Origin: Candidatus Parvarchaeum sp.
GTDB taxonomy: Archaea; Nanobdellota; Nanobdellia; Pacearchaeales; GW2011-AR1
Direction: 5' to 3'
DNA length: 64,000 nucleotides
Assembly (NCBI GenBank): GCA_020724955.1
Contig: DYFY01000003.1
Location: 23,463-87,462 of the forward strand
The translations under genes were made by a program, and so were the position numbers. The notes beneath the pieces are model-generated. The model did no database searches and was not told the DNA's origin. It saw only the letters and a list, made by a program, of their open reading frames with translations. Below, piece by piece: positions 12,285-50,525 of the stretch. Each line of letters opens with the position of its first letter. The stretch's first letter is position 1.

Positions 12285-12286
12285 TC

Positions 12287-34421: not shown

Positions 34422-34781
34422 ATGGCGCAGAGAACAAAAACAAAGCAGATAACAATCGTCGATGAAAAGGGCACTTTCGGAGTTTTTCTTAAAATGCTTC
34501 AGGGTCCAAAGAGTGATTACGACTTCCAGAGCCTTTCTGCACTTAGAAGTCTGCTTTCAAACGAGAAAGCAAGGCTTATCCACACAATAAAAACAAAAAA
34601 TCCAAAATCTGTTTATTCTCTGGCCAAAATTCTTCAGAGGGATTTTAAATCAGTAAGCGAAGACATCAAGCTTTTGGAGAAATTCGGGTTTATAGACCTT
34701 ATAGCTGAAAAAACAGGAAAAAGAAACAGGCTCAAGCCAGTAGTTGTTTTGGACTCTCTTGTTATTGAGCTTAAAATTTAA
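34422..34781 (+). CDS. Predicted wHTH transcriptional regulator (COG4190-like)
   Basis: 119 aa. LSALRSLLSNEKARLIHTIKTKNPKSVYSLAKILQRDFKSVSEDIKLLEKFGFIDL...GKRNRLKPVV matches my recollection of the COG4190/HVO_A0114-type layout. Confidence 0.6.
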   Translation: MAQRTKTKQITIVDEKGTFGVFLKMLQGPKSDYDFQSLSALRSLLSNEKARLIHTIKTKNPKSVYSLAKILQRDFKSVSEDIKLLEKFGFIDLIAEKTGKRNRLKPVVVLDSLVIELKI

Positions 34782-35275
34782 CCGCAGAACTCGAGCCGTG
34801 TTATTATGCTTCCCGAATCTGATGGTATTGGATACTCAGCTCCTGAAACAGCTCCCAAGCATATCCCTGAGCTTAAAGAAATCACTTCATCGGAATTTTC
34901 ACCCAGCTCATATTTTGCCTCAAATTTATATCCTTTTACAGGCCTGTCTTCCCCAAAGGCAATGCTTTTTCCAAGCATTTCTTTTAGGCTCTGATTCAGG
35001 GCTTCACAAATTATTCTGCCGTCAACGCATTTGCTTGCCGAATTTTCATTGCACTCTCTTATAAGCTCGGATATCCTTCCGTAAGCAGGAATATAACCAA
35101 CAGCGCAGTCTGTTGTAAACTCAAGCATGCTTTCTAGCAGACTTCTGGCCTGAAAGCTGTCTCCAACAGCTTCATCAGAGCTTCTGAGGGCAAACCCTAG
35201 AAAAACCAAAGCAACAACACTCATAATTATGATTATTATTATAAAACCCACTATTTCTTCCTGTCCTTTTTTCAT
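34778..35275 (-). CDS. Class-III signal peptide (type IV pilin-like) protein P4
   Basis: I placed the start at MKKGQ|EEIVGFIIIIIIMSVVALVFLGF. This ATG overlaps the upstream stop codon as ATGA at 35272-35275. The mature part contains 6 Cys. The track ORF extends to 35317. Confidence 0.55.
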   Translation of the reverse strand: MKKGQEEIVGFIIIIIIMSVVALVFLGFALRSSDEAVGDSFQARSLLESMLEFTTDCAVGYIPAYGRISELIRECNENSASKCVDGRIICEALNQSLKEMLGKSIAFGEDRPVKGYKFEAKYELGENSDEVISLSSGICLGAVSGAEYPIPSDSGSIITRLEFCG

Positions 35276-35784
35276 TGTAATCCCTCTCCAGCTATAAGGA
35301 TTTTTCCAAGCTCGCATTTATAATATTTTTCAGAACTTTCATATCTGCACAAGGAGACAAACGAACTTTTTGCATTAAATATGTCCTCTTTTTCAACAAT
35401 AGTTATCTTCCCGCACTCGGGATAGTTTGTTTTAGTGCATTCCCCTTCTCCCTCCGGATAAATTTTTTCAATTCTCAAAAGAGACAGCTCCCAAAAATCT
35501 TTGTATCCTTGTCTTTCTTTTAGGAGAAAAGCCTTGTCAAGATCTATACAGCTTCTGCATTCGTCTATTTCCCACGAAAATTCAGGGGTTGTTGCTATCT
35601 CCCTGGCAGCCTGAAGAGCCCTCTCGTCTCTGAGGTTTTCAGCAGTATTCTTTAAGGACGAAGTCTGGAGGCTTAAGAGAAGTATTCCTGCCAGAGCAAA
35701 AAATAATACAATCGCAATCAGCACAAAAGCCATCTGCTGGACTTTCATCTGCCCTCTAGAAGAATTTACAGCTAAGTCTTTCAT
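35272..35784 (-). CDS. Class-III signal peptide (type IV pilin-like) protein P3
   Basis: 170 aa. The N-terminus is MKDLAVNSSRGQ|MKVQQMAFVLIAIVLFFALAGILLL and the globular part is Cys-rich. Confidence 0.55.
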   Translation of the reverse strand: MKDLAVNSSRGQMKVQQMAFVLIAIVLFFALAGILLLSLQTSSLKNTAENLRDERALQAAREIATTPEFSWEIDECRSCIDLDKAFLLKERQGYKDFWELSLLRIEKIYPEGEGECTKTNYPECGKITIVEKEDIFNAKSSFVSLCRYESSEKYYKCELGKILIAGEGLQ

Positions 35785-36682
35785 TTGTCCTCCTTAAATC
35801 TTCGGATTTTAAAGCTATTTGTTCAATCTCTCCTGAATTTTCAAGTTGAATTTCAGCTGCATAAATTCTTAACTCCTCTGCAAACTCTGCCCCGCAAGAA
35901 CCTCCGAATATTTCTGATTTGGCTGCGTACAGCTGAGCCAGCTCTCCGGCTCTTTTCATTAGTCTCTGAACTTGACATTCATATATCTCAGGCTCTGCAA
36001 AAATAGCCCCATAAAGCAGGGCATCCCCATAGTAGCTTACGGTTTTTCCCTTTAGGTTGTGAGTTACTCTCTCCGAGCTGGTATCCACGTTTATGTCGCA
36101 CCCGGAATCAAAGACATTTCCCGAGAAACATACTTTAATGCTTTCTCTGTTGCATTCGCTCATCTGTGAGGCAACAACCACTCTTTCCGCACGGCTTTCT
36201 TCCACGCTCTGCGGCGGATTGACAAAACAATATTCTTCTGTATAAGCATAAATCAGGCTTCCCACTTCGAATGGCATTTCAAAAGATTTTACAAATAAAT
36301 GCAATCTCTCGCCCTGCTCAACAGAATCCGAGAATAAATATTTGTCATAAGATATTTTTTCAATTTCCGGCTCTCTAAATCCCCCAGAGATGCCTGCCGA
36401 ATTAGCGCTTATTCTTTGTTCTCCGAAATTTCCTTCCGTCCTGCATGAATTAAAAATCCTGGTTTCTGTCGGAAAAGAAACATTCAGCGAGCTCTCATCT
36501 TCAATTCCTGCTCCCATTGGGTCAAGCAAAATGGCTATTTCGCTGGTGAGTTCGGCTTCAGCCCTTCTTTCTCCGCTGTTTATCACTCCAACAACAGCAT
36601 AGATTGATATAAACAAAATTGCTGCGCCCGCAATCATTGCAAAAAGCCACGCGAAACTAAACTCAATCGCTCTTTTGTTCAT
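35756..36682 (-). CDS. Class-III signal peptide (type IV pilin-like) protein P2
   Basis: 308 aa. The N-terminus is MNKRA|IEFSFAWLFAMIAGAAILFISIYAV and the protein has multiple Cys. Confidence 0.55.
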   Translation of the reverse strand: MNKRAIEFSFAWLFAMIAGAAILFISIYAVVGVINSGERRAEAELTSEIAILLDPMGAGIEDESSLNVSFPTETRIFNSCRTEGNFGEQRISANSAGISGGFREPEIEKISYDKYLFSDSVEQGERLHLFVKSFEMPFEVGSLIYAYTEEYCFVNPPQSVEESRAERVVVASQMSECNRESIKVCFSGNVFDSGCDINVDTSSERVTHNLKGKTVSYYGDALLYGAIFAEPEIYECQVQRLMKRAGELAQLYAAKSEIFGGSCGAEFAEELRIYAAEIQLENSGEIEQIALKSEDLRRTNERLSCKFF

Positions 36683-36683
36683 C

Positions 36684-37160
36684 TTATTCCAATACCCTCA
36701 CTAAGCCGTCGGTGCTTTCTTTTTCTATTTTTATTTCTATTCTCCCGCTTGCTGTTTCAAAACATTTGACTCCAGAAAAATCAAATCCAACATGCTCTAT
36801 TTTCCTGTTCCCGAGCTCAGCGCACGATTTTCTATACGGGTAAAAGAAAATATTTGAGTCAAGTTCGCCGTATGTTCTTAAATCAGAGTATTCAGGAATA
36901 TTGCTCGGCGCAGATATGTCCCCAAAACAAACTTTTTCCACGCCGGAAGGCACAGAAAGCCTAAGAGTATTTTTTGTTATTTCAGAATTCCATGCTCTGT
37001 CTATCGCCTCTTGAAGGTCGTTGTAAAAAATCCCTGCTTCTGCACATTTTCTGACATCCAGAAATTTTCCGATGGCGTAAAAGCCTGTAAAAATGATAGC
37101 CCCTATAAGAATTACGGAAAATATAAACCCAAATGAAATCTCAAACCCTCTTTTGTTCAT
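36684..37160 (-). CDS. Class-III signal peptide (type IV pilin-like) protein P1
   Basis: 158 aa. The N-terminus is MNKRG|FEISFGFIFSVILIGAIIFTGFYAI. Its stop lies 1 nt from the P2 start. Confidence 0.55.
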   Translation of the reverse strand: MNKRGFEISFGFIFSVILIGAIIFTGFYAIGKFLDVRKCAEAGIFYNDLQEAIDRAWNSEITKNTLRLSVPSGVEKVCFGDISAPSNIPEYSDLRTYGELDSNIFFYPYRKSCAELGNRKIEHVGFDFSGVKCFETASGRIEIKIEKESTDGLVRVLE

Positions 37161-37421
37161 AATCTAAAAAGCAAAATTCAATAATTAAATGTTTCTAAAT
37201 TGTTGAGTTTGGGCAGAGTGGGAAGGTTAGGTCAGATTCATAAAATAGCGGTCAAAAGAGCTGAAAATTTTCTTGCGAAGCAAAAATCCGAATAGTTATT
37301 TGGAAGCCTTAAATGGTATGACATAGCCAAATTTTATTAGAGAGATATATTATATTTTTTCTAGACTTGAAGAGATATACATAATCCAAAATTTTTTATA
37401 GGAAAGAATAGATTTATAATT

Positions 37422-39452
37422 ATGCAATTTAAATATCCAAAAACAAAAAAAATAGAAAAGATTGATAATTACCATGGAACAAAAGTTTCTGATTCCTATC
37501 AATGGCTGGAAAATTATTCTAATAAAGATGTTAAGGAATGGATAAAAAAACAAGAGAAACTGGCACATTCCTTCATAGATAAGCTTTCCCAGAAAAAGAA
37601 AATTCAAAAGAGATTAAATGAATTATGGAGATATGACGAAAGAACTATTCCTTGGGAAGTATTAAAAGGGAAAAGAATTTTTTTTCATGAGAGAAAAAAA
37701 GATGATGAAAAATGGGTTTATTTCACTCAGGAAAATCAAAGTTCAGAGAAAGTAGAATTGATTAACCCAAATAAATGGGGAGAAAAAGATTCTTTAAGTT
37801 TTGTGGTTCCTTCTGTAGATGGAAAATATGTGGCATTTGGAAAAGACAAGGGAGGCGATGAAAATCCCAAGATTAAAATAATGCACGTCGAGTCAAAAAA
37901 AATATTGAATGATTCAGTAACCGGATGGAAACAAGGCAGGGTTTCTTGGTTACACGACAATTCTGGGTTTTATTATTCCAGAAAGCCATTAAAAGGTGAT
38001 GTCAAAGAAGGGGAAGAATATTACTGGGACGAAGTTTATTTTCATAAACTTGGAACTTCTTCATCTGAAGATAAAAGAATATTTTTTTGTAAGGAAAAGA
38101 AAGAATATTATCATACCGCGAGTGTTACGGAAGACGGAAAATATGTTATTTTCTATAGAAGTACTTTTGGTAAATGCGAAGTTTATTTTAAGAAAATCAA
38201 TTCAGATAAAATTATCCCTATAGCCGAAGGATTTGATGCAGATTATCAAATAAACATAGTGAAAGATAAAATAATAATAAAAACTAATTTAGAAGCATCA
38301 AAAGGAAAGATTTTTGTTAGCGATATAGATAAACCGGAAAAAAACAATTGGCAAGAGTTAATCCCGGAATCGGAAGATAGCCTTCAGGATGTAAGCGCAA
38401 TTTCAGGCAATCTTTATATAGAATATCTTCACAAGGCTCATTCAAAGATCAAGATTTATTCTTTAGAAGGAAGATACCTTAAAGATGTGAAGCTTCCAGA
38501 TATTGGCAGTGCGGAAGTTTATGGTTATTTTTCAAAAAAGAACGTCTGGATCAGATTTTCTTCGTTTTTGTTTCCCTTTACAACTTACAAATACGATTTT
38601 GGTAAAAACGAGCTAAGTTTATTCTTTAAGCCACCAATAAATCTTAAAGTAGACAATTTTAGTACAAGGCAAGTAGAATATAAGTCCAAAGACGGAACTA
38701 AAGTAACAATGTTTCTTTTGAGCAGAAAAAATGTCAAAAAAGACGGAGAAAATCCAGCATTGTTAACTGGTTATGGAGGTTTTAACATTTCTATGACCCC
38801 ATATTTTTCTGCAACCTATGTTTCTTGGCTTGAAGCAGGAGGTATAGTCGCAATACCAAATTTAAGGGGGGGCGGAGAATATGGGAAAGAATGGCATGAA
38901 GCAGGAAAACTTGAAAAAAAGCAAAATGTTTTTGATGATTTTATCTCAGCTGCGAAATTTCTAATAAAAGAGAAATATACTAATCCTAAGAAGTTGGCAA
39001 TTTATGGAGTGAGTAATGGTGGTTTGTTAGTTGGAGCAGTTGCTATGCAAAGACCAGAACTCTTCAGAGCCGTTGTTTGCAGCGTTCCTTTATTAGACAT
39101 GTTGAGATATCATAGGTTAAGCATAGCAAATACTTGGGCTGTAGAATACGGAAGTTCAGAAAATCCGGGACAATTTGAATATATCTATAAGTATTCGCCT
39201 TATCATAATGTCAGAAAAAATGTAAAATATCCTGCAATGTTGATAACTACAAGTGAAAATGATGCAAGAGTAGACCCAATGCATGCTCTAAAGATGGTAG
39301 CTAAACTCCAAGAATTCAATCCAAATGGAGAACCAATTTTTCTTTTAGTAAGAAAAAATTCCGGACATGCCGGCGGAACGACTATCTCTAAAATAATAGA
39401 GCAAGTATCCGAAGAAATAGCTTTTCTAATGGAAAAAGTAGACACAAATTAG
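37422..39452 (+). CDS. Prolyl oligopeptidase (S9A serine peptidase)
   Basis: 676 aa. It has the N-terminus YPKTKKIEKIDNYHGTKVSDSYQWLEN, the catalytic GVSNGGLL (GxSxGG), and distal D and H regions (ENDARV, SGHAGG). Confidence 0.9.
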   Translation: MQFKYPKTKKIEKIDNYHGTKVSDSYQWLENYSNKDVKEWIKKQEKLAHSFIDKLSQKKKIQKRLNELWRYDERTIPWEVLKGKRIFFHERKKDDEKWVYFTQENQSSEKVELINPNKWGEKDSLSFVVPSVDGKYVAFGKDKGGDENPKIKIMHVESKKILNDSVTGWKQGRVSWLHDNSGFYYSRKPLKGDVKEGEEYYWDEVYFHKLGTSSSEDKRIFFCKEKKEYYHTASVTEDGKYVIFYRSTFGKCEVYFKKINSDKIIPIAEGFDADYQINIVKDKIIIKTNLEASKGKIFVSDIDKPEKNNWQELIPESEDSLQDVSAISGNLYIEYLHKAHSKIKIYSLEGRYLKDVKLPDIGSAEVYGYFSKKNVWIRFSSFLFPFTTYKYDFGKNELSLFFKPPINLKVDNFSTRQVEYKSKDGTKVTMFLLSRKNVKKDGENPALLTGYGGFNISMTPYFSATYVSWLEAGGIVAIPNLRGGGEYGKEWHEAGKLEKKQNVFDDFISAAKFLIKEKYTNPKKLAIYGVSNGGLLVGAVAMQRPELFRAVVCSVPLLDMLRYHRLSIANTWAVEYGSSENPGQFEYIYKYSPYHNVRKNVKYPAMLITTSENDARVDPMHALKMVAKLQEFNPNGEPIFLLVRKNSGHAGGTTISKIIEQVSEEIAFLMEKVDTN

Positions 39453-39731
39453 ATCTTCAATTCTTAGAAAAATTTGCGTGAGTGGTAAAAACCATTTCAA
39501 CTTTTGTTAGAAAAAGTGCGAAGCATTTTTTGAGTTTTGTTCTGTCAGTTAAGAAATTTTTTTGTATTTAATGATACATTCTCCATTTTAGGGACGGATA
39601 GTCATGGTTTTAAGGTTCTTGAGATTTTTTGCAAGAAAATTCAGGGATACTCGCTGTTAAACGAGATTGAGTTAAGCGGAAGGATACAACCCTGTCTGCA
39701 AGGATTTACGGCTTTTTCTTTAGCTATCTGC

Positions 39732-42071
39732 CTAAACAAAATTGCTTGCTCCTGCAACAAGACTGCATTGGTTTGTTCCGGGCTGATTTCCGAAATCATC
39801 AACGCATTTTATATGATATGTTTTTCCAGGCTGCCACTGGGCAAAATGCACTGTTTTTTTATCAACGTCCAGTATCTTCATCATTATTCCCGTGTTTGCC
39901 TCAAAATTGCAGTCGTTTAAAGAATAAGAACACTCAGCTTTCTCGCTTGTGATTATTTTTAAAGAGTCAACCCCTTCTTTATAAGCCCTTGTTATCAAAG
40001 GAGCTGTGTTGTCAGTTTCAACACTAAAGCTGACATTGGCAAAATCAGCATTTCCGCCAAGATCGACACACCTGAAATGATAATTGTAATTCCCGGAAGC
40101 GAGCTGTAAACTTTGTCTGTGTTTGAAGCTGTTTGTTTCAAACATTGCAATAAAGCTGTTTTCATCTCCCGTAGGACTAAAGTAACAGATGGCTTTTCCC
40201 TCTTCAGCTCCGTTGCTGGTTTCCAACTCAAGATCAACCTTCACAATTTCAGTGCTGTCAAAAATTTTCTCTCCTTCTTCTGGTTTGATGTCTATTATAT
40301 TAATCTCCTGGCTTCCCAACAGGCTGAATTCGTAGCTCTCTGTATTGACATTCCTGTCTTCCTCAGCTTTGCCGGGCTGGTCTTTGCATCTGAAATAAAA
40401 TTTGTTTTCCTGCCTGTCTTTTATTCCTGTTAAACTGGTTTTGCATTCATAAAGCTGTCTTGCATTCTGCTCATAAACCTCTGTAGAGCAGTTCATGGAA
40501 TTCTCCATGCTTTCATAAGCCTTGTCGTCTATGCTCCATTTGCATTCTGCAGGCTCATTAACAAAAGCAGTTATATCAATATTCTGGCTTCCAAATGCAA
40601 CAGGGCTTCCCCGCACTATTGATGTGTCTTCAATAATTGGAGGAGTTGTGTCTGGCGAAGGATCAACGCAGAAGCTAAACACAAACGCGTCCTCGTTTAC
40701 ATTTCCGTTGGCATCTCTGCACCTTACAAAAAAATCATATTTTCCGTCAGCGCCAATAATCAAATCCCCCTCTGCAGCTTCTGCCAAGGCATTAGGAGAA
40801 GGCAGTCTTAATGCCTGGGTGTGATTCTGCCTGAATAAGTTATTTTCTCCGAAGAAGAACCTCATGTCGTCAAATCTCATCTGGCTGTCTGTATCTATCT
40901 TGCATTGCGAAGGTTCATTTGTGGTCAGCCCAAATTCCAAAGCTGTAAACGCGGCAATGCATCCATTGGAGCTGTCTGTTCTAATTATTTTGGTTCCCAA
41001 AGCTGGTGGTCTTGTATCATGGCTTGTATATGTGTGCTTATCTGTCAAAGCGTCCTGCCAAGGAGTTATCGTCGGACTTGTGACATCACTTCTGCTTACC
41101 CAGACGCATTTTTCCTCGTCAGTGCCTGGATTCACGAGCTCGCATGCCTGCCCCAAACTCTTGCATCTGTATTCAGAGCAGGGCAATCCCCCGGAATTGC
41201 ACTGCTCGCAGTTGCTTCCCCCAAGAGGAGCCTCCCAAGGAAGGCATTGAAACTCAGCTATTTTCTGACTTTCCTCTTTGTACAACAAAACAAAAGTAAC
41301 AGCTGCCACTCCAATTCCTATTGCAGGAGCATAATTCAAAAAGAAACTACCTTTATCTAACAAGCCAAAACCACTTGGACCTAAAGAAGCTAAGCCCTTA
41401 TAAGACATTATTCCCGCAAAAGCTGCAATGCTTAACGCGTTAGTTGTTTCTTGCTCAACACCAGCAATTCCTCCTATCAATTGAATTGCTCCGACAACAG
41501 CCAAACTCCAAGCCAATCCTTCAAATAAATGAGCATACCCCCCTGTAATCTCAAGCCCTAAAAAGTCAATTTTCTTTCTGGAGGTTAAGGAAACCCCCTT
41601 ATCTGCCAAACCGCTTTTAAAAACATCAACCTGTTCATTAGGAACCGTATCTATTATTGTATCTCCCTCACCAAGCAGTCGCAAGTCTCCGTTAGAAGCT
41701 ACAGAAGTATCTTTAATATCTAAGAGATTTATTTTCTTTCCGCTAGGCGAAGTAAAAAAACTATCTTTGGAAATTGCAGAAGTTCCTGTAAGCCTTGCTC
41801 TTGATACACTGTCTACTTCTATTAAAGCAGCAGTTCCTTTACTTCCTGGTTTTGGCTGAATTCCTTCAAAATTCCATCCCATATATTGTTGTTGAGCACT
41901 TGTTCCTGGAGCGGGAGGACCAAGAATTTGAGAATTGGGAACTGGCTGCTCTTGCCCGCTAACAGCATTTGCCTCTCCGAGAATGAATCCAAATGCGGCA
42001 ATTGAAACCAGCATCAAAAATATCTCACCTAAACTAATGTTAACAATAAAGCTACTTCCTCTTTTCTGCAT
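39732..42071 (-). CDS. Large surface protein, the C-half homolog of the 1386-aa giant
   Basis: 779 aa. The order is a pilin-like N-terminus, a Gly/Ala-rich hydrophobic block, a Cys knot and four Ig-like modules. The N-terminus is MQKRG|SSFIVNISLGEIFLMLVSIAAFGFIL. The hydrophobic block is ...GLAWSLAVVGAIQLIGGIAGV...APAIGIGVAAVTFVLLY. It is followed by FQCLPWEAPLGGSNCEQCNSGGLPCSEYRCKSLGQACE. The four modules are about 110 aa each with the signature NEPxxCK...F[FY][FV]RC.D..GN. Confidence 0.6.
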   Translation of the reverse strand: MQKRGSSFIVNISLGEIFLMLVSIAAFGFILGEANAVSGQEQPVPNSQILGPPAPGTSAQQQYMGWNFEGIQPKPGSKGTAALIEVDSVSRARLTGTSAISKDSFFTSPSGKKINLLDIKDTSVASNGDLRLLGEGDTIIDTVPNEQVDVFKSGLADKGVSLTSRKKIDFLGLEITGGYAHLFEGLAWSLAVVGAIQLIGGIAGVEQETTNALSIAAFAGIMSYKGLASLGPSGFGLLDKGSFFLNYAPAIGIGVAAVTFVLLYKEESQKIAEFQCLPWEAPLGGSNCEQCNSGGLPCSEYRCKSLGQACELVNPGTDEEKCVWVSRSDVTSPTITPWQDALTDKHTYTSHDTRPPALGTKIIRTDSSNGCIAAFTALEFGLTTNEPSQCKIDTDSQMRFDDMRFFFGENNLFRQNHTQALRLPSPNALAEAAEGDLIIGADGKYDFFVRCRDANGNVNEDAFVFSFCVDPSPDTTPPIIEDTSIVRGSPVAFGSQNIDITAFVNEPAECKWSIDDKAYESMENSMNCSTEVYEQNARQLYECKTSLTGIKDRQENKFYFRCKDQPGKAEEDRNVNTESYEFSLLGSQEINIIDIKPEEGEKIFDSTEIVKVDLELETSNGAEEGKAICYFSPTGDENSFIAMFETNSFKHRQSLQLASGNYNYHFRCVDLGGNADFANVSFSVETDNTAPLITRAYKEGVDSLKIITSEKAECSYSLNDCNFEANTGIMMKILDVDKKTVHFAQWQPGKTYHIKCVDDFGNQPGTNQCSLVAGASNFV

Positions 42072-42115
42072 GCATTTAATAGAAAAGCGTTATTTATAAA
42101 GAATTCTCTTAAGAA

Positions 42116-43050: not shown

Positions 43051-44583
43051 TCAACTTCTCACAACTTCATATCCTTCTTTGTAACCTTTCTGATTCACCC
43101 AATTCAGCTTCGGCCCGCAGTCCCCTAAAGCCGAGCAGACATCAGCTCTTTGCTTTTCCCATTCTTCTGTCAAACATTCGCAGTTTTCAACACACTCTTC
43201 TCCTCCAAAAAGCCCTTTTTCGAATTTTACAACGCACTGCACATTTGCCTGGCTGCATAAGGCCAATGCTTCCTCGCTGTTCCAAAACTCCAGCCCAGGA
43301 GGGTTTTTAGGAAGGCAGCTCCCATCAGCGCTATCATTAAGCCCTATAGTAACCCCTTCTTTCCAAAAACAATCCCTTCTGTCAGTATTTTCGCAGTCAT
43401 CCTGATTTGCCTGAGCCAAACAATCCTGCCATCTATTAACTCTGCATGCTGCCTGAGAAAACTCTCTCCCTGAGAATTCTATTGAATCTTCAAGACATTC
43501 CTCATTTCTGAAATCAGCGCAGGACTCTGTGATTATTTCTCCATTAACGCAAATCTGCCTGAAAAATCTGCTTCCTACTTTGTTGACTCCGTCTTTTGTT
43601 GTTTTGCCATCCCCGACGCACCAGCTCTCTCCGTGCAGCCTGTCTTTACCTTCAGAGTCTTTGCAGTTCAAATCAGCGCATATATAATCTCCGTAAATTG
43701 CATTCCCCCCTGATTTGTCTTCGGCCCTGCAGAAACTTCCAAGAAGATAATTGCAGTTCCCGCAGCTTCTGCTGTTTCCGTTTCCGCTGTTCGGACTGCA
43801 GCTCTCAGCTTTGTTTTTTACATTGGTCCAATAATCCTGGTCTTCTCTTTTGGACGAATCGTAAATGTTGGCGGGATTTCCGCAGGTGTCCACGTAATAA
43901 ACCTCATCTTTTCCAGGAAGGCATGTTGTTTTGTCTGAAGGTCCGCAGTTTGTGCCAAGCTCATCCGCCGAGCATAATTTATCTTCGAAGAAGATTCCTG
44001 TAATAGTTCCGTTATTGATTCCTGAATCACATTCAGCCCTGGTTGTAAATTTGCATGTCCTCTCAAACTCAAAATCATAAACGCATGCTCCCTTGTCCTG
44101 ATTAGAAACGCTCTGAACACACGCAAGCTCATTGCTTATTGATTTGTCATAATTTGTCTCAAGCCCTAATGAAGCAGAAAGTTTTTTGCATCTCACTAAA
44201 GTCACAAAAGCAGCCTGGTCGCCGAGCTTGCAGCATCCAAGCTCGCACTGCGGAGGATTTTCTTCGTTCCATATTCCTCCATTTTGGTTGCAGGTTATCT
44301 GTGGAGTGTTGTCAAGGCATGTTCCCTCTGTACTGCTGTAACAAACACCTGGCTTGCAGAAGCTTGTAGACTCGCACGAGGTAGGAACGTTTCTTGCCCC
44401 TTCTGCGCACTCGCTTGGCAGAACATCCTGGCAAAAGGCCCCGGAATTAGTTCTCTCACAGCACACTGTGTTAGTAGCCTGAGCCTGCACAGAAAACACA
44501 TGAATAAAAAACAAAAACACAGCTCCTATAATTAGGGCTGTCGCTGGTTTCCTGCCAATCAATTTTATTGTTTTTGGTTTCAT
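43051..44583 (-). CDS. Secreted cysteine-rich protein, the N-half homolog of the 1386-aa giant
   Basis: 510 aa with a Sec-type signal (ALIIGAVFLFFIHVFSVQAQA). It has roughly 60 Cys by eye. It is collinear with residues about 70-745 of the giant, for example GKDEVYYVDTCGNPANIYD with GKDGVYWIDSCGNRENIYE, and SCGNCNYLLGSFC with SCGNCNRFAGSVC. Its ATG overlaps the upstream stop as ATGA. Confidence 0.6.
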   Translation of the reverse strand: MKPKTIKLIGRKPATALIIGAVFLFFIHVFSVQAQATNTVCCERTNSGAFCQDVLPSECAEGARNVPTSCESTSFCKPGVCYSSTEGTCLDNTPQITCNQNGGIWNEENPPQCELGCCKLGDQAAFVTLVRCKKLSASLGLETNYDKSISNELACVQSVSNQDKGACVYDFEFERTCKFTTRAECDSGINNGTITGIFFEDKLCSADELGTNCGPSDKTTCLPGKDEVYYVDTCGNPANIYDSSKREDQDYWTNVKNKAESCSPNSGNGNSRSCGNCNYLLGSFCRAEDKSGGNAIYGDYICADLNCKDSEGKDRLHGESWCVGDGKTTKDGVNKVGSRFFRQICVNGEIITESCADFRNEECLEDSIEFSGREFSQAACRVNRWQDCLAQANQDDCENTDRRDCFWKEGVTIGLNDSADGSCLPKNPPGLEFWNSEEALALCSQANVQCVVKFEKGLFGGEECVENCECLTEEWEKQRADVCSALGDCGPKLNWVNQKGYKEGYEVVRS

Positions 44584-45386
44584 GCGCTCTCTCCCAATCC
44601 ATACCCTGCAGGCCAGACAAGGCTTCTGACTGCAAAGTTGAACTCATCACCAGAAACAACATTTTTCAGCTTATATACTTTATAGTCTTCCTTCCTTATT
44701 TTCTCTATTTTCAAATCAGGGTAATATTGCATGTAAAGCAAAGTTTCAGAATCTCCTAAACTTGATTCAAACTGGATTATGCTCGTCGCTATGCTAAGCA
44801 GATTGTAAATCTCGCTGTCAATCGCAATGGAAAACCTGTTAAATTTCTGGCTTCCTTCCTTAGTTATTGTTACAGGAGATAAAAAGTCAACTATTATTTT
44901 TCCAGGGAGCAAGTCAACGTTAATCTCTCCCGCATCCGCCTGCACGCTGTAACCTCTTTCTTCATAATACTCTTTAAGCTCGCTGACACAGCTCTTAGCT
45001 CTTGGTTCAACTCTGCTTTTTATCTCTTTTTTGACATGGTCTACCAGCAGAGGCTGTTGAACAACACAAGGTTTGTAATTTTCCGAAGTGTAACAAAGGT
45101 ATTGTATCTTTTGGTTTTCATAACTGACAAAACTATCCGGCTCTATATATCCCCCTTGGATTGAAATTGCCTGCACGCTGTCTCTGACTTCAGGCTCTAT
45201 ACAATCTCTCAGAAATCCGGAAGGGCTTGCCTCTGTCCTCTGTCCGATATCCAGATTAAAATTTTGAGCTAGAAAAAAAATTCCGATTATAGCAAGAATC
45301 AAAACAGCAACTATGACAAAAACAGCTATTTGCCCCTTTTTTTCCATGAGGAAAAAAGCACAATTTTGTTTATAATCTTTCCGCAT
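44580..45386 (-). CDS. Class-III signal peptide (pilin-like) protein, module B (paralog of 49546..50367)
   Basis: 268-aa ORF containing ...MEKKGQ|IAVFVIVAVLILAIIGIFFLA. An alternative start is at 45348. The ATG at 45386 overlaps the stop of the giant gene as TAATG. Confidence 0.55.
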   Translation of the reverse strand: MRKDYKQNCAFFLMEKKGQIAVFVIVAVLILAIIGIFFLAQNFNLDIGQRTEASPSGFLRDCIEPEVRDSVQAISIQGGYIEPDSFVSYENQKIQYLCYTSENYKPCVVQQPLLVDHVKKEIKSRVEPRAKSCVSELKEYYEERGYSVQADAGEINVDLLPGKIIVDFLSPVTITKEGSQKFNRFSIAIDSEIYNLLSIATSIIQFESSLGDSETLLYMQYYPDLKIEKIRKEDYKVYKLKNVVSGDEFNFAVRSLVWPAGYGLGESA

Positions 45387-48300
45387 TAATAAACCCCTCC
45401 CCCAACCTGCAAACAGCTCCCGCGGTTTCCAAAATTATCTTCACATCTGATTGTGTAAATCAAATCTTTTTTGAAGCTTTGCAGGGCGTGCTTCAATTCT
45501 GTTCCCCCGATTTCCGTGGCATTGTCAAAAGTTTCTCCAATAAGATTGGTGCAGCTTTCTTCTGTAACATATTTGCAAACAGCGTTCTCGTCCGTGATAA
45601 CATTCAACACGCCATTTGTATCATAAACTCTTGTTATTAAAGGCCCGTCGTTGTCAAAATCCAGCGTGAATTCTGCTTTCCCCTCTGCGACATTTCCAGC
45701 AACATCCTCGCATCTTATTGGAATTGAATAATTGCCTTCAATAAAAACATTAAATTCAGGTTGTTTGTGTAAACTCTCTCCTGTCTCAAGAAATGCAGAG
45801 AAGCTGTTGCCATAGCCAAACGAGCAGATAGCTTTTCCATTTTCAGCACCTCCTGAAGTTTTAACTTCTAAAGTTATTCGTGTTGGACCTTCAGCTAATA
45901 TTTTTCCTGAAGGTTTAATTTCTGTAATTGTCAAAGCACTCTGGCTCTTCTTTAAATTATAAATCACGCTCTGGCTGTTTGCATTTCTCTCCTTGTTGTC
46001 TGGATTGCTTATTTCAAGCCATGGCTGGTCTTTGCATCTAAAGTAATAATTATTTTCATCCCCTAAAATAGTTAAATTTGCTTCACATGGAAATCCAAAC
46101 AAAGTTTGGTCTCCAATTTCGTTTTTGCAGAAAGCTTCATTACTCATTAACTCATAAGTTTCATCTTTTATGCTCCATTTGCACTCGGCAGGTTCGTTGG
46201 TATAGAAACTTATTTTTTTATCAGTAGCATCCAGCCTCACAAAACTTCCGCTTTCCGGGCTGAATTCTGAAATTATAGGAGGGGTTTTATCATCTTCAGG
46301 AGAAAGGCAGAAATTTATAACATATTGAGGAACATTGGCATTTCCATTTTTATCTTGGCATCTTACATACAAGTTAAAATCTGCCCTCTCGTTTTGATTT
46401 ATTCCAGCAGAAGACAAACTTGCCAGGCTTGGGAGAGCAAAGCTCATTGAATGATTTGTTTTGTATAGATTGCTTCCTCCGAAAAAGCCGGACATTTCCT
46501 CAAAGCTGTTGGTATTCACCACATCTGTTTTGCACTGTGCAGCTTCATCAGTTTTAATTCCAATCTGAACCTGTGTATAAACAGGAAGGCATCCGTCGGA
46601 GGTGTTTCCTCTTGCTTTAAATCCAGAGTCAGATATCTCAATATATTCAACATTATCAGATTTAACCTCAGCATTTTCGCTTATTTTCGGGGGAACAGAG
46701 TCGCTCGGAGAAATATTGACGCAAGCTTCTTCTTCAGTGCCTTCGTTGATGAACTCACATGTCTGCCCGAGGCTTTCACATTTGTATTTGTTGCATGGCA
46801 ATCCGTCTTCAGTATTTCCGCACAATTTGCAGTTCTTCCCGCCGGCAGGGGCCTGCCAAGGCATACATCTAAACTCTACTCTTTTTTCTTCACCCTGTCC
46901 AAGGTAATAAGCCAATCCCGTAGTAATCCCCGCGACAAGTCCGACAGGTCCCAGAAAGCTGAAGCTCAAGGCCAAGCCGGTTCCGGATAATGCAAGAATC
47001 CCTCCTGTAATGCCACTGGCAGCCCCGACAAACAAAGCCTGATTTCCTTTGAGCCCCGCCGCTTTCGCAACAAGCAAGCCGATTCCAGCACCAGCAGCAG
47101 CAGAGACCAGTGCATTTCCTACAACCATTGCGTTTGCAGAAAGGCTGTCTGCTCCAAGAAAATAAGGTATATTGGCAATTCCTGCACCTGCACCTTCTAC
47201 TCCTGCGAGATAAGCCAAAGCATAATCCAAAGCATAAACTCCTGCTCCTGCCAATCCCACAAGCTCAGCAAGCTTTTCATCGGCGTTGGGGTCTTGAGGA
47301 TTTATGTTGTAAATTGCATATATCTCCTCTTTTGTCAAAGGCTGAGCGCTTTGTCCTGGGACTGCTTTCACCAATTCTTTAAGGGATGAAACATACCTCT
47401 CTCCAAGCGGTGGAGAATCTTCTATAAAAACTCCGTCATCTGTAAACTCTCCCGCCACATTAATATGCGCCCCACAATCTCCGAGACTTATACAAGCGTT
47501 GTTCATAGTTTCGCCAAAAATAGCTTCCCTGCATTTAGTATTTGTACTGCTTTCAAAAAGTCCGCCTCTGTAGGTATCGCAGTTAACGCTCAAAATACTG
47601 CACAACTTTTCTGATATTTCACTATCTGCCTCAAAATGAGCAGGGTTTTTTGGAACGCATATTGAAAACTTAAAATCGTCATCTATGTCAACATTTTTTA
47701 AATAACAATCGGTGTTGGCTTCGCACTCTTCTTTGAGCCTTTCAGGATTTTCCTGATGCTCATTAGCGGCGAGACATGCCTGCCAGTTGTTTGCCCTGCA
47801 CTCTGCTCTGGAGTTTCCTATTTGAGTTGTTTGCTGAAAACAAACTTCTTTTCTTCCAGGGGCGCATGGCTCAAGTATGACTTCTCCCTCACGACATACT
47901 TCTTTATAATGGCTGCTTCCCGGAATGTCAACGCTCCTTGCTGAATTCCCTGATAAGTCTATTATTTTTTTGTTCAGTTTATTTTGATTGCATATCTCTC
48001 CTGTAGATGCTTTAAACCCAAAAGAATATATTCCTGACTGGAAATTGTCAGGAATTCTAAATCTGTATTGAATTCCGGCGTTTCTGTTTTTTCTAATAAG
48101 CTCTATTTTTTCCAATGGTCCAGATGCAACGCTATTTTCTCGTGAAGGAAAGTAGTTTTGAAATTCAAGAGAATCGGCAACATTATTTCCTTGAGAGTCC
48201 AGCACGATAAGCTCAACAGAGATGTCTCTTAAAACAACATCATCAAGGCTCGCAAAAAATACATCGGCAGTGGCATAAACAAAATCTCCCGGCTTCAAAT

Positions 48301-49546
48301 CACCACTATCTAAAAAAATGGCTCGAACATTTATAGAATTTCTCCACTCTAAGTTTCCTATACTGGTTTCTCCAAAGCCACTTGGAGTTTCTCCGCATAA
48401 ATTGACATCAGGAGGTTCAATAAAATTTTGTTCAGGGCTTATCTCTCCATCAACCCCAATTTGTCCCTCTGTCACGCACCAGCTTTCCCCATTTTGTCTT
48501 GCATTTCCCCACCTGTCTGTACAGCCAAGATTTCTGCAGACAAAGTTTCCGTCAATAGGTTTGGTTGTTTTAGAGCTTGCAGGGCTGCAAACGCTTCCAG
48601 CAAATCTGTTGCAGTTCCCGCAGCTGGCAGCGCTTCCTAATGGGTCTCCTTGAGCCCCGAGCTCGCAAACATTTTCATCATTCAAATCCATGACCTTTCC
48701 ATTATTCCAGCTTCTGTCTTTTGCAGCCTGGCTTCCCGATTCGTAAATGTTTTCTCTGTTTCCGCACGAATCAATCCAATAAACTCCGTCTTTTCCTTCA
48801 ACACAGCTGGTTGTTTTTTGTCTTTCACACTCTGTATTTAAATCAGGATTCGAGCATAAATATCCGGAATAAAATTGCCCTTGTCTGTTTGCACACTCCT
48901 TTTTTGTTGTAAACTTGCATTTATTCTTTTCCCTTTCTGGATTGGCGGAAACACACGCTCCCTCGAAATCAGGGTCAATCATCGCGATACACTGAATTTC
49001 ATTGTTAACATCAGCATGGAAATTAAAGGTATTGCCTTCTGAAATTATTGCGCATTGCTGCTCGGTTGCAAGCTGTGCATTGCTTCCGAACAAACAGCAT
49101 CCCTGTCTGCATTCAGGGATTTCATTTATTCCATTTTCATTCCATTCAGCTCCGCCCTCTTCGCAAAAAAACTTTGGGCTGTTCGGAGTGCAAGTTCCAG
49201 AAATTTTATCTATACAAGTCCCTGTTTTGCACTGGCTTACAGCTACAGAAGAAACCGGGATACACGCTTCAGAACATTTAGAATCGCATTCACTACTCAA
49301 GTATTCCTGGCATTTTTTGCCTTGAATATCAACAAGGCATGTAGAAATAGAGATTTGAGTTTGCGCGCTGACTATTCCTTTAGAAAGCCATCCTAAAACA
49401 AGCTCTCTGATTTTAACAATCAGCCTGCTTTCTTCGGCATCTCCGCTGACAGCCATATAACTTGATTCGTGAAATATATACGCAAATGCAAAAATAGCGC
49501 ACACAATAATCATTATCTCAGATATGGCTGCCACTTCTTTTTTCAT
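45386..49546 (-). CDS. Giant (about 1386 aa) cysteine-rich membrane/surface protein equivalent to the 510-aa and 779-aa proteins fused
   Basis: I placed the start at MKKEVAAISEIMIIVCAIFAFAYIF (ATG at 49546, overlapping the upstream stop as TAATG); the track ORF starts at 49570. The domain order is an N-terminal TM helix, then a Cys-rich region with a CARDB-like insert. A Gly/Ala-rich hydrophobic block follows, then FRCMPWQAPAGGKNCKLCGNTEDGLPCNKYKCESLGQTCE and Ig-like modules. Confidence 0.65.
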   Translation of the reverse strand: MKKEVAAISEIMIIVCAIFAFAYIFHESSYMAVSGDAEESRLIVKIRELVLGWLSKGIVSAQTQISISTCLVDIQGKKCQEYLSSECDSKCSEACIPVSSVAVSQCKTGTCIDKISGTCTPNSPKFFCEEGGAEWNENGINEIPECRQGCCLFGSNAQLATEQQCAIISEGNTFNFHADVNNEIQCIAMIDPDFEGACVSANPEREKNKCKFTTKKECANRQGQFYSGYLCSNPDLNTECERQKTTSCVEGKDGVYWIDSCGNRENIYESGSQAAKDRSWNNGKVMDLNDENVCELGAQGDPLGSAASCGNCNRFAGSVCSPASSKTTKPIDGNFVCRNLGCTDRWGNARQNGESWCVTEGQIGVDGEISPEQNFIEPPDVNLCGETPSGFGETSIGNLEWRNSINVRAIFLDSGDLKPGDFVYATADVFFASLDDVVLRDISVELIVLDSQGNNVADSLEFQNYFPSRENSVASGPLEKIELIRKNRNAGIQYRFRIPDNFQSGIYSFGFKASTGEICNQNKLNKKIIDLSGNSARSVDIPGSSHYKEVCREGEVILEPCAPGRKEVCFQQTTQIGNSRAECRANNWQACLAANEHQENPERLKEECEANTDCYLKNVDIDDDFKFSICVPKNPAHFEADSEISEKLCSILSVNCDTYRGGLFESSTNTKCREAIFGETMNNACISLGDCGAHINVAGEFTDDGVFIEDSPPLGERYVSSLKELVKAVPGQSAQPLTKEEIYAIYNINPQDPNADEKLAELVGLAGAGVYALDYALAYLAGVEGAGAGIANIPYFLGADSLSANAMVVGNALVSAAAGAGIGLLVAKAAGLKGNQALFVGAASGITGGILALSGTGLALSFSFLGPVGLVAGITTGLAYYLGQGEEKRVEFRCMPWQAPAGGKNCKLCGNTEDGLPCNKYKCESLGQTCEFINEGTEEEACVNISPSDSVPPKISENAEVKSDNVEYIEISDSGFKARGNTSDGCLPVYTQVQIGIKTDEAAQCKTDVVNTNSFEEMSGFFGGSNLYKTNHSMSFALPSLASLSSAGINQNERADFNLYVRCQDKNGNANVPQYVINFCLSPEDDKTPPIISEFSPESGSFVRLDATDKKISFYTNEPAECKWSIKDETYELMSNEAFCKNEIGDQTLFGFPCEANLTILGDENNYYFRCKDQPWLEISNPDNKERNANSQSVIYNLKKSQSALTITEIKPSGKILAEGPTRITLEVKTSGGAENGKAICSFGYGNSFSAFLETGESLHKQPEFNVFIEGNYSIPIRCEDVAGNVAEGKAEFTLDFDNDGPLITRVYDTNGVLNVITDENAVCKYVTEESCTNLIGETFDNATEIGGTELKHALQSFKKDLIYTIRCEDNFGNRGSCLQVGGGVY

Positions 49547-50367
49547 TAAAATCCTGCGGGAATGGCGCACCCCCTTATAGCTATATGCATTTTCTTTCCT
49601 GTATTTTTATGCTCTATAGTATAAATCTCTGTCGAATCAGACATGACATTTTTGCGGACATCAAAATCCCTATAAAGCAGGCTGTATCCTTCAGCAGAAA
49701 AATGGCAGAATTGCGCTTCCTGCCTGACAATTTCAGAAGCAACATAACCAAGCTCGCCCAGCGGAGTCGGTAAAGTTGTCTTTATTTCCTCAAAAACCTG
49801 GCTGCTTCCAGAGCCAGAGACAACTATGTTTCCTGTCATTAAGATTTCGGCAGTCTCAGGATTCAGCATGACCTTTACACTTTCTATTTCTCCGGAAACA
49901 GCAAAATTTCTTCTTTCTGCTTCCTCTCTAAAAGAATTGAGGCATTCAGCAGCACCGGAGCTGATTTCTCTCTCAATTTCTCTCTCAATTTCACTCAAAA
50001 GAGCCGGATGCTGGTTTATGCAAGGTTTGTAATAATTTATGTTCTCGCACAAATATGTAGCTTTAATGTCATTAAAAGTCTTATAGTTTTGAGGATTGAC
50101 AAATCCTCCCTGCTCAATTGCGCTGTCTATCTTCTTTCTGGCTTCCTGCCTTATGCATTGGTCCAGGTAAGTTTCAGGATTGAACTCAGCACTTCCGGAA
50201 ATACCAGGAGAAATTCTAAAAGCAAAAAACAAAGAGACAACAGCTATAATAATAATAGCAACAATGATGAAGATAGCCACCTGCCCTCTTTTTTGCAAAT
50301 CAAATTCATTTCTTATGTTTACCAAATTTAACCTCACAGAAAAATTTAATTGCTTCCTCAACAACAT
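49546..50367 (-). CDS. Class-III signal peptide (pilin-like) protein, module A
   Basis: 273-aa ORF containing ...DLQKRGQ|VAIFIIVAIIIIAVVSLFFAF. The ATG at 50367 would overlap the RHH gene by 62 nt. A TTG at 50298 would give (M)QKRGQ..., parallel to MEKKGQ in its paralog, and is an equally plausible start. Confidence 0.5.
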   Translation of the reverse strand: MLLRKQLNFSVRLNLVNIRNEFDLQKRGQVAIFIIVAIIIIAVVSLFFAFRISPGISGSAEFNPETYLDQCIRQEARKKIDSAIEQGGFVNPQNYKTFNDIKATYLCENINYYKPCINQHPALLSEIEREIEREISSGAAECLNSFREEAERRNFAVSGEIESVKVMLNPETAEILMTGNIVVSGSGSSQVFEEIKTTLPTPLGELGYVASEIVRQEAQFCHFSAEGYSLLYRDFDVRKNVMSDSTEIYTIEHKNTGKKMHIAIRGCAIPAGF

Positions 50368-50470
50368 GAGAAATATTTCTATATGGGCCTTCTTTTATGA
50401 CTCCCTCAATTTTTCTTTTTGTTTCAGGATCAACTGTAGCCGATATTCTGGTCTTGTTCTCTTTCCTCAT
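50306..50470 (-). CDS. Ribbon-helix-helix (CopG/Arc/MetJ-type) DNA-binding protein
   Basis: Hand-translated 54-aa ORF below the track cutoff: MRKENKTRISATVDPETKRKIEGVIKEGPYRNISHVVEEAIKFFCEVKFGKHKK. It shows the beta-strand, helix, helix pattern of RHH proteins. It is the first gene of the minus-strand array. Confidence 0.6.
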   Translation of the reverse strand: MRKENKTRISATVDPETKRKIEGVIKEGPYRNISHVVEEAIKFFCEVKFGKHKK

Positions 50471-50473
50471 GGT

Positions 50474-50525
50474 TAAGTAATACTTTATCCTATTTTTTGT
50501 TATAAAATATATTAGATATTACTTA
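50474..50525. promoter_or_regulatory. 9-bp perfect inverted repeat bracketing the presumed promoter of the RHH-led array
   Basis: TAAGTAATA (50474-50482) and TATTACTTA (50517-50525) are separated by a 34-nt spacer containing TATA-like AT tracts. The first arm begins 4 nt upstream of the RHH ATG. Confidence 0.35.

Follow-up and report, generated by a model that had tools for sequence, protein, structure and literature searches.

A duplicated module of orphan Cys-rich surface proteins and prepilin-type proteins: a candidate contact complex of Pacearchaeota-type DPANN archaea

The Sulfolobus bindosome comprises sugar-binding proteins that carry class III (prepilin-type) signals, together with the small pilin-like proteins BasABC (PMC4858521). 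Pilins with a glutamine at position +1, and type IV filament (TFF) system 1, are known from methanogens and some DPANN archaea (10.64898/2026.04.22.720090), and in Methanococcus the +1-Gln pilins are processed by EppA (PMC3875500, PMC4390842). Archaeal pilin genes are often unlinked from the gene for the ATPase, and archaeal type IV pilus (T4P) loci often contain genes for Cys-rich adhesins and S-layer-like proteins (PMC4858521). Here we analyze a locus that can be set beside these systems, i.e. the cluster of surface-protein genes at positions 34778-50470 of a 64,000-nucleotide stretch of DNA (the window) from Candidatus Parvarchaeum sp., a member of the Pacearchaeales (contig DYFY01000003.1 of assembly GCA_020724955.1, positions 23,463 to 87,462 of the forward strand). 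Among the DPANN archaea, Pacearchaeota and Woesearchaeota rank with the most abundant and the most reduced, and they are thought to be attached to hosts; to our knowledge, no member has been grown in culture and no machinery for attachment is known from them. The locus, with ~10 envelope genes that all belong to unannotated families, provides a concrete candidate for such machinery.

Pacearchaeota appear to be strongly host-attached (10.1101/2020.05.14.094862), and FlaI, FlaJ and FlaK have been reported in most metagenome-assembled genomes of Woesearchaeota (PMC11606122, PMC8407392). We found no description of the locus in the literature; the nearest statement is that of a Pacearchaeota lineage-specific module of unannotated membrane and extracellular families (PMC8204110). 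Our functional statements draw on sequence, predicted structure and gene context. On this basis we tentatively read the locus as encoding a lineage-specific, self-anchored surface adhesion or contact complex of Pacearchaeota/Woesearchaeota-type DPANN archaea, with pilin-type anchoring and with its processing machinery encoded elsewhere, a reading that we favor but consider plausible rather than probable.

A duplicated module of Cys-rich surface proteins

All of the open reading frames (ORFs) in a preliminary description of this DNA were recovered at the same coordinates by ORF mapping, and the genes of the locus lie on the minus strand, a peptidase gene being the sole plus-strand gene. Comparison of the large proteins with one another revealed that the locus is a duplicated module. 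The largest protein (the giant; 45386-49546 from an ATG or 45386-49570 from a GTG) is 1386 amino acids (aa) long from the ATG at 49546, as originally described, and is in this form identical to database protein P0001. Residues 66-704 of the giant match the 510-aa protein (43051-44583) with 35% identity (E 2e-47), and the stretch from 804 to 1394 corresponds to 170-763 of the 779-aa protein (39732-42071) with 36% identity (E 3e-99). The giant is a fusion of a 510-like Cys-rich head with a 779-like membrane block and immunoglobulin-like (Ig) rod. Its head is a Cys-rich ectodomain with 43 Cys (47459-49375; residues 66-704 in the numbering from the GTG), its charge-free, hydrophobic Gly/Ala block spans residues ~770-890 (46901-47263), and a membrane-proximal 7-Cys knot followed by ~4-5 tandem Ig-like domains occupies 45389-46885.

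Module 1 consists of pilin-like A (49546-50367, 273 aa as the longest ORF) and its partner, the fused head-rod protein i.e. the giant. Module 2 consists of pilin-like B (44580-45386, 268 aa), the separate, secreted 510-aa head, a 229-aa lipoprotein-like protein (42116-42805) and the 779-aa rod protein. Each module therefore begins with a pilin-like protein of ~260-270 aa, and these two proteins are paralogues (26% identity, E 1e-39). In some genomes the head and rod of module 2 are also fused, giving proteins of 1216 aa (L042; L numbers denote related loci) and 1368 aa (L064). The gene overlaps reported previously, ATGA at 35272-35275 and 44580-44583 and TAATG at 45384-45388 and 49544-49548, are exact, and through such overlapping junctions pilin-like B is translationally coupled to both of its neighbors. 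In L008 an S-layer-like gene of 685 aa is inserted between the giant and pilin-like B.

The 229-aa protein has the lipobox-like sequence LAGGTG/C (in motifs a slash marks the predicted cleavage site), and its positional equivalents carry L[AS]GC-type lipoboxes, which agrees with its original description as lipoprotein-like. In most loci this position is occupied by 1-3 fast-evolving genes that have only the L[AS]GC lipobox in common (>20 loci); by this lipobox the 229-aa protein and its equivalents are putative lipoproteins. The usual lipoprotein position of L086 (6710-7211) holds a PemK toxin gene and a 59-aa gene.

The high Cys content noted in the preliminary description was borne out, since the proteins of the locus contain 3.9% Cys, as against 1.06% for the proteins elsewhere in the window. 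The giant contains 65 Cys, the 510-aa protein 43 (8.4%) and the 779-aa protein 21. About 50 Cys are invariant in the alignment of giants, including Cys pairs in the Ig-like domains. Scans of all ten proteins against Pfam, NCBIfam and PHROGs gave nothing above threshold. The giant has 413 homologues and P2 (see below) has 193, all of them unnamed DPANN proteins, and none of the 503 homologues of pilin-like B is named; the profile of pilin-like A and B matches 4896 clusters (at 50% identity) at E ≤ 1e-3, and 540 when the limit is tightened to E ≤ 1e-30. The large proteins were originally said to belong to no described family, and this still holds: only generic Ig-array similarity was found, and none of them hit a known family unrelated to surface filaments.

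To determine the distribution of the system, we ran a pattern scan in which each GTDB species was represented by a single genome. Relatives of the giant were present in 358 species-level DPANN genomes. The best 80 of these 358 were all metagenome-assembled genomes labeled Pacearchaeota, Woesearchaeota or Nanoarchaeota, with the exception of one 3-kb contig, which is probably mis-binned. In the 80 loci fetched, the order (RHH)-pilin-like A-giant-pilin-like B-head-lipoprotein(s)-rod, where RHH is a putative ribbon-helix-helix gene, was found in every locus that was long enough. The 510-aa head is the most conserved locus protein (median identity 61%). Median identity to the window is 38-39% for module 1 and 48-61% for module 2 i.e. 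module 1 is the faster-evolving of the two.

The modules occur in three arrangements. In arrangement A, that of the window, PCNA is followed by module 1, module 2, four further genes for proteins with prepilin-type N-termini (P1-P4), a regulator and an S-layer gene; the locus is thus flanked by PCNA and a fused primase on one side and by winged helix-turn-helix (wHTH) and S-layer genes on the other. The wHTH regulator (34422-34781, plus strand, 119 aa) belongs to the HVO_A0114 family (Pfam PF25212, E 2.4e-17), is convergent with P4 and keeps its position and orientation in relatives. The S-layer protein (31503-34019, minus strand, 838 aa) matches Pfam S_layer_C with 37.8 bits against a cut-off of 23.9, and a homologue is found in the same place in L004, L006, L011, L013, L014, L042, L046 and L087. 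Arrangement B is as A but with module 2 only (L087, 4285-12129; its PCNA is 51% identical): the single module of L087 is orthologous to module 2 and precedes P1-P4, regulator and S-layer gene, so that module 2 is the ancestral one. In arrangement C modules 1 and 2 are flanked by housekeeping genes that are unrelated to them, and the surrounding ±10 kb contain no P1-P4 motif. As the module is present here without P1-P4, the module would be the core unit of the system. Its association with P1-P4 and the S-layer gene has support in arrangements A and B but is not universal.

This distribution could also be that of a housekeeping envelope scaffold, e.g. stalks that anchor or space the S-layer in a role like that of SlaB, with the prepilin-type N-termini acting as uncleaved signal anchors and the complex not being a host-contact device. 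The system is single-copy and syntenic, and the presence of relatives of the giant in 358 species-level genomes is like that of a core envelope function; it also adjoins the S-layer gene and conserved regulator both in the window's clade and in the divergent L087. However, the S-layer adjacency is lost in a second clade, and the fast divergence of the locus proteins (35-45% identity where PCNA is 71% identical) and the variable head insertions are more typical of interaction surfaces. Taking these points with those discussed below, we think a scaffold somewhat unlikely; even then, the analysis would provide a large part of the DPANN 'dark matter' with an architecture and a role.

Predicted architecture and topology

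The architecture of the large proteins was predicted with an AlphaFold2 (AF2) model of the giant homologue P0087 (1199 aa, 54-sequence alignment, pLDDT 77.7). In this model an N-terminal transmembrane (TM) helix is followed by a β-rich, Cys-rich head (54-530, pLDDT ~80-90), a disordered linker of ~90 residues, the block helices (623-649, 655-676 and 682-700) and a C-terminal β-rich region (705-1199, pLDDT ~90). The head of the window's giant carries in addition a window-specific Ig-like insertion (residues 376-541, 47948-48445), which is absent in L001. Hydropathy analysis bore out the hydrophobic Gly/Ala blocks that the preliminary description gives for the large proteins, locating them in both the giant and the 779-aa protein, and showed that they are charge-free. 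For the ~120-residue charge-free block 3-4 membrane helices are predicted, the fourth being weaker and coming from column hydropathy, and the last is a conventional, strongly hydrophobic TM segment. After this last helix comes the knot motif F.C.PW..P.GG..C..C... (7 Cys). The giant thus has one N-terminal and 3-4 internal hydrophobic helices as anchors, and the 779-aa protein consists of a Sec-type signal or anchor, a segment of ~130 aa, the Gly/Ala block (~170-265), the Cys knot and the Ig rod.

In a Foldseek search of the PDB, the Ig array of the P0087 model matched PTPδ Ig1-Fn2 (E 4e-11), MAG, desmogleins, protocadherins and the GhpA grappling hook, with E values of 4e-11 to 1e-8 over ~500 aligned columns but TM-scores of at most 0.34 on the target and ~10% identity. 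Pfam gave sub-threshold matches to Big_13 and DUF4625. The predicted array of tandem β-sandwiches resembles extracellular adhesion ectodomains, and its fold and paired invariant Cys suggest that the rod lies outside the cell. The Foldseek searches of the PDB and BFVD with the P0087 model returned generic Ig arrays only, behind which the Cys-rich head was masked; in BFVD these were phage Ig arrays, and neither search showed similarity to class II fusogens or viral glycoproteins. In the searches made, no recognizable relative emerged for the head, for the knot of 7 Cys or for the Gly/Ala block, and the sole match to the Gly/Ala block in a PDB sequence search, the type III secretion system (T3SS) translocator AopB, was insignificant (E 0.71).

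The unusual Gly/Ala block raises the question of whether its helices could act on a partner membrane. In a host-membrane-engaging device they would, instead of or besides anchoring the protein in the producer's own membrane, insert into the membrane of the partner in the manner of translocator or fusion segments and open a channel or cytoplasmic bridge; the head would bind a receptor, and the pilin-like proteins would form the base. Consistent with this, a ~120-residue charge-free block has been kept in both paralogues, a long disordered linker joins head and block in the AF2 model, cytoplasmic connections between DPANN archaea and their hosts are documented in other lineages (10.1101/2024.05.20.594898), and the one PDB sequence match of the block, insignificant as it is, was to a translocator. 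Against it, no significant similarity to a translocator, fusogen or pore former emerged from the PDB, Foldseek or BFVD searches, and the last helix is a conventional TM segment. We consider such a device very improbable. There is likewise only a slim chance that the locus encodes an undescribed archaeal surface organelle in which prepilin-type N-termini are used without a dedicated motor and head-tethered Gly/Ala helices open the partner membrane; if it did, the long search for the host-contact and uptake device of Pacearchaeota-type DPANN archaea would be over.

We used glycosylation sequons to look at the topology of the proteins, counting N-X-S/T and the reverse motif [ST]-X-N across families, including 54 giants; in a single protein, sequon density was uninformative as a marker of surface exposure. 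The heads of the 54 giants contain 64 sequons where 251 are expected, a ~4-fold depletion, and 280 reverse motifs, a number in line with expectation, whereas their Ig rods show no depletion (298 sequons, 303 expected). The 510-aa family is ~2-fold depleted (111 forward, 239 reverse motifs), and the pilin-like B family is ~3-fold depleted (39 forward, 111 reverse). Such selective avoidance argues for exposure to oligosaccharyltransferase together with a need for glycan-free surfaces. The Sec signal of the 510-aa head, the invariant Cys and the sequon avoidance point to an extracytoplasmic head, and as both the head and its pilin-like partner are sequon-depleted and encoded by adjacent genes, an interface between the two proteins seems plausible.

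Prepilin-type N-termini and the case for a contact complex

According to the preliminary description seven proteins of the locus carry class III N-termini; comparison of the N-terminal motifs across 23-79 orthologues per family showed that six of them are conserved across relatives. A class-III-like N-terminus, i.e. a short basic leader that ends in [KR][GAS] and is followed by ~20 hydrophobic residues, is found in pilin-like A (...KRG/QVAIFIIVAIIII), pilin-like B (...MEKKG/QIAVFVIVAV) and the four smaller proteins P1 (36684-37160, 158 aa, MNKRG/FEISFGFIFSVILI), P2 (35756-36682, 308 aa and the largest of P1-P4, MNKRA/IEFSFAWLFAMIAG), P3 (35272-35784, 170 aa, ..SSRG/QMKVQQMAFVLIAIV) and P4 (34778-35275, or to 35317 as the longest ORF, MKKG/QEEIVGFIIII). 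The start of P4 is most likely the ATG in the ATGA overlap (35275), which gives a protein of 165 aa starting MKKGQEE.

Pilin-like A and B share the motif [KR]G/Q[VIM][AT][IV][FW][VI]I. In pilin-like A [KR][GAS]Q followed by a hydrophobic helix is kept in 70 loci, and among the 120 database homologues of pilin-like B, Gly is at -1 in 115/117 and Gln at +1 in 117/117. The motif K[KR]G...SFGMIFSI of P1 is kept in 28 loci, G/[FLY][ED]FSFAWLFA of P2 in 29, [KR][GAS]/Q.K[IV]QQMAF of P3 in 27 (with Q12, Q16 and M18 invariant) and [KR][GAS]/QEE[IM][VI]GF of P4 in 23. Only 4 of the 168 six-frame ORFs of at least 60 aa in the window have the strict pattern of [KR][GAS]Q followed by 14 or more hydrophobic residues, and none of the four lies outside the locus. 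That G-1 and Q+1 are near-invariant points to a site of processing rather than to a simple anchor. It had been foreseen that the N-termini might turn out to be ordinary signals or anchors; for these six the motif is too conserved for a plain signal anchor.

The 779-aa protein, which had been counted as the seventh, was rejected as a pilin-like protein: its 'KRG/SSF' is separated from the hydrophobic stretch by ~10 residues and is not conserved, and its relatives (42 loci) have a charged n-region, an h-region and a VSA/Q-type Sec cleavage site. In the giant a TM helix is followed by a near-invariant VSA/Q, and the 510-aa head has an ordinary Sec signal peptide (..FSVQA/QATNTVCCE) with no further TM segment, a pattern kept in 64 loci. 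All three large proteins thus fall outside the class III pattern and have Sec-type signals or anchors. The N-terminal helices of the giant (residues ~15-70, ~49360-49530) and the 779-aa protein (1-40, ~41950-42071) have conserved flanking Glu/Gln in the pattern [FS][EQ]-IFLLI...-[EQ], followed by the signal-peptidase-like site VSA/Q; this conservation is odd for a segment that cleavage at VSA/Q would remove.

In the contact complex that we favor, each module would consist of a ~260-aa class III protein, a glycan-free disulfide-rich head, one or more lipoproteins and a rod protein made up of a membrane bundle, a Cys knot and 4-5 Ig domains, and the complex would be anchored in the producer's own membrane. 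Head and rod would form one physical unit, because they are fused in the giant (a Rosetta-stone argument), and the pilin-like partner would bind the head, as suggested by the 1:1 pairing, the translational coupling and the shared sequon avoidance. From their motifs, the six [KR]G/Q or G/F-E N-termini would be cut by a peptidase of the FlaK/EppA/PibD type (MEROPS A24) that is encoded elsewhere. The hydrophobic helices and P1-P4 could form a short membrane-proximal bundle, pseudopilus- or bindosome-like, and not a long pilus; by means of the Ig rods the complex would reach across the pseudo-periplasm as far as the S-layer or beyond it, where the Cys-rich heads would bind a host cell or a surface.

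Several results weigh against this interpretation. None of the six proteins matched a pilin, archaellin or class-III-signal hidden Markov model above cut-off in Pfam or NCBIfam, and a member-by-member comparison of the entire P3 and P4 families with Pfam gave only scattered TM-helix noise, with no consistent match. The AF2 model of pilin-like B lacks the long, β-sheet-packed α1 of filament-forming pilins. No class III peptidase, ATPase or platform was found by motif scans within ±10 kb in 83 loci (7496 ORFs), and on the window's contig, which is 87.7 kb long and bears the JGI name Ga0246236_1000144, the further 10 kb upstream contain only glycosylation genes and no pilus motor or peptidase. 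T4P components have been stated to be missing from DPANN genomes (preprint 10.1101/2020.05.14.094862). The clade with arrangement C keeps the core block without nearby P1-P4 and has also lost the S-layer adjacency, and PCNA, which is clearly unrelated, is equally syntenic in the window's clade, so adjacency alone is weak evidence for a link to P1-P4 or the S-layer gene. Finally, AF2 gives three block helices, and an odd number would put the rod in the cytoplasm, contrary to the location suggested by its fold and Cys pairs.

As the preliminary description stated, the window contains no T2SSE/FlaI-type ATPase, FlaJ/TadC platform or A24 peptidase, as every ORF of at least 400 aa and every multi-TM candidate either was assigned to another kind of protein or gave no match. 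Its sole large polytopic protein is a Wzx/MATE-type flippase. None of the 7496 ORFs in the 83 loci combines a Walker-A motif (G..GSGKT) with a length of >350 aa, and the gene tables of L001, L002, L086 and L087 list no platform protein.

The model of pilin-like B, the sole member of the six that was modeled, has a pLDDT of 84.8 and consists of a 27-residue TM helix (17-43), a low-confidence linker (42-51) and an α/β domain made of three α + β-meander units. The pilin fold, in which the C-terminal half of α1 is packed on a β-sheet or Ig-like head, is not seen in it. Foldseek found no PDB neighbor for it (best E 0.014, TM ≤ 0.15), and its ectodomain is predicted to be a new α/β fold. Profile searches of the PDB with the families of pilin-like B, the giant, P1, P2, P3 and P4 gave nothing significant, and the only sub-threshold matches to pilin-like models were ComGE/TadE-like for the N-terminus of P3 (E ~0.01) and PilE1 for P1 (E 0.17). 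By hhalign P1-P4 have nothing but their N-terminal segments in common, and this holds for P1 and P2 in particular. The six proteins are pilins by motif and not by any other test made here. Judged from its model, pilin-like B looks more like a tether with a prepilin-type helix, as in the Sulfolobus bindosome, than like a filament subunit.

These results bear on the possibility that the locus is a T4P accessory locus, with P1-P4 as priming minor pilins, pilin-like A and B as further minor or major pilins, the large proteins as PilY1-like tip adhesins and an unlinked FlaI/FlaJ motor. P1-P4 are small, coupled and, with sizes of 158/308/170/165 aa, reminiscent of GspH-K or FimU-PilVWX sets; their class-III-like motifs are conserved; a distant ATPase gene and Cys-rich adhesins are common features of archaeal pilin and T4P loci (PMC4858521); and a PilY-like adhesin has been reported in archaeal subsystem 4A/B (10.64898/2026.04.22.720090). 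However, the giant and the 779-aa protein have N-terminal and internal membrane segments of their own and would have to leave the membrane in order to be carried to a pilus tip, the modeled fold of pilin-like B is not pilin-like, and neither the Pfam scan nor the P0087 model revealed a PilY1/PilC-type β-propeller or vWA domain in the large proteins. No candidate major pilin was identified either; none of the six stands out as small, abundant and tandemly duplicated, and A and B are proteins of ~260 aa with a linker between helix and head. No motor was found near any of the 83 loci, and one clade keeps the core block without adjacent P1-P4. We therefore regard a pilus accessory locus as unlikely. 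The original proposal of a surface filament or contact apparatus survives in its second half: a contact apparatus remains the best reading, whereas a filament is not supported because there is no local motor, the B model is not that of a pilin, the large proteins are self-anchored and P1-P4 are partly unlinked.

The same results also bear on the envelope scaffold considered above. In the model of pilin-like B a TM helix, a flexible linker and a globular domain follow one another as is typical for a bitopic anchor. Neither the window nor the ±10 kb scanned in the 83 loci yielded a peptidase or motor, and the length of the Ig rod suits a spacer across the pseudo-periplasm. On the other hand, the near-invariance of G-1 and Q+1 and the +1 to +8 motifs of P3 and P4 would not be expected of a mere anchor.

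Neighboring genes and comparison with known systems

At the head of the operon lies a putative RHH gene (50306-50470, minus strand, 54 aa) that overlaps the longest ORF reading of pilin-like A; the true start of pilin-like A is probably downstream of the longest-ORF start. The assignment of the 54-aa ORF to the RHH family is weakly supported, as its match to Pfam RHH_1 (model positions 1-35 of 39, E 0.029) is below cut-off, but a small gene is indeed kept there: ~25 loci have a BLAST-detectable homologue in the same position.

Between the rod gene and P1 the window has a gene for a prolyl oligopeptidase (S9) of 676 aa (37422-39452, plus strand; Pfam Peptidase_S9_N 1.6e-82, Peptidase_S9 1.8e-58), the GC content of which is below that of the locus. 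BLAST found no homologue of it in any related locus fetched, and in the gene calls of L001, L002, L086 and L087 the rod gene directly precedes P1 (with a gap of 38 nt in L001). The peptidase gene is therefore a window-specific insertion and was rejected as a member of the system. It is bracketed by a weak 14-nt inverted repeat (37266-37279 / 39628-39641), which may be due to chance. A mobile-element or viral origin of the locus was also rejected, in view of its chromosomal synteny across species, the lack of PHROG matches and the absence of flanking repeats or tRNA genes.

The primase gene beside PCNA (51666-53246, plus strand) matches the Pfam models of both PriS and PriL, which suggests a fused PriS-PriL primase. 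It is followed by genes for two more orphan surface proteins of 605 aa (53282-55099, plus strand, 28 Cys) and 411 aa (55220-56455, plus strand), each of which combines a Sec signal with a Cys-rich stretch near the C-terminus, a TM helix and a basic tail and has no Pfam match. Genes of the same size adjoin primase and PCNA in L001 and L002, so that the replication genes lie within a region rich in surface proteins. Elsewhere in the window are a large surface protein with three LamG/ConA-like domains and a C-terminal TM helix, cut by the window end (61571-64000, minus strand), and a CARDB/DUF4352 surface protein with a C-terminal TM helix (27569-29248, plus strand). Positions 1-16500 and 10 kb upstream on the contig (L084) hold a large glycosylation and polysaccharide gene cluster, with GT2, GT4 and GT9 glycosyltransferases, epimerases, a carbamoyltransferase and a Wzx-type flippase, which is possibly the source of the envelope glycans.

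The layout of the locus had been likened to the bacterial fimU-pilVWXY1 arrangement. In layout and sizes the two are alike: as in FimU-PilVWX-PilY1 and the GspH-I-J-K set of the type II secretion system (T2SS), four small, co-directional and coupled genes with prepilin-type products lie beside very large surface-protein genes, and one member, P2 (308 aa), is markedly larger, as are GspK and PilX. Beyond this the likeness fails, since no sequence or fold homology was detected, PilY1 domains and an anchor-free adhesin were not found, the large proteins are self-anchored, no ATPase, platform or peptidase is nearby and, in part of the clade, P1-P4 do not adjoin the core. With TFF system 1 and the Epd pili of Methanococcus the locus shares the [KR]G leader, the Gln at +1 and the hydrophobic helix (10.64898/2026.04.22.720090; PMC3875500; PMC4390842), as well as the presence of many diverse pilin-like proteins in one system; unlike these systems it lacks an ATPase, a double platform, EppA and any pilin-HMM match, and the domain of pilin-like B is modeled as a new α/β fold.

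The Sulfolobus bindosome (PMC4858521) is alike in that surface proteins that do not form a filament use a prepilin-type N-terminus as a handle, in the company of small pilin-like proteins and in the vicinity of the S-layer. The locus lacks substrate-binding domains and the BasE/BasF ATPase and membrane protein, however, and the likeness would be a functional one. The locus also offers a clean test of whether DPANN archaea use prepilin-type signals for anything other than classical filaments. The T4P loci of Thermoproteales (PMC4858521) similarly combine pilin-like proteins with large secreted or membrane proteins containing many Cys and with S-layer-like proteins, but they hold ATPase and TadC genes and belong to defined arCOGs, whereas here there is neither of these genes and no family match. 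The predicted Ig rod, which makes up the last ~500 aa of both the giant and the 779-aa protein, resembles PTPδ, MAG, desmogleins, protocadherins and Aureispira GhpA, although this likeness is generic to β-sandwich arrays and the head, Cys knot and Gly/Ala block are without counterpart in these ectodomains. In function, the minor-pilin/adhesin sets, the Epd-type +1-Gln pilins, the bindosome and the T4P loci of Thermoproteales come nearest to the locus. Membership in any of these systems fails where testable, save for the N-terminal motif and the generic Ig array. The locus is therefore best described as a pilin-signal-using archaeal surface system built from orphan families, with a small chance of its being something categorically new.

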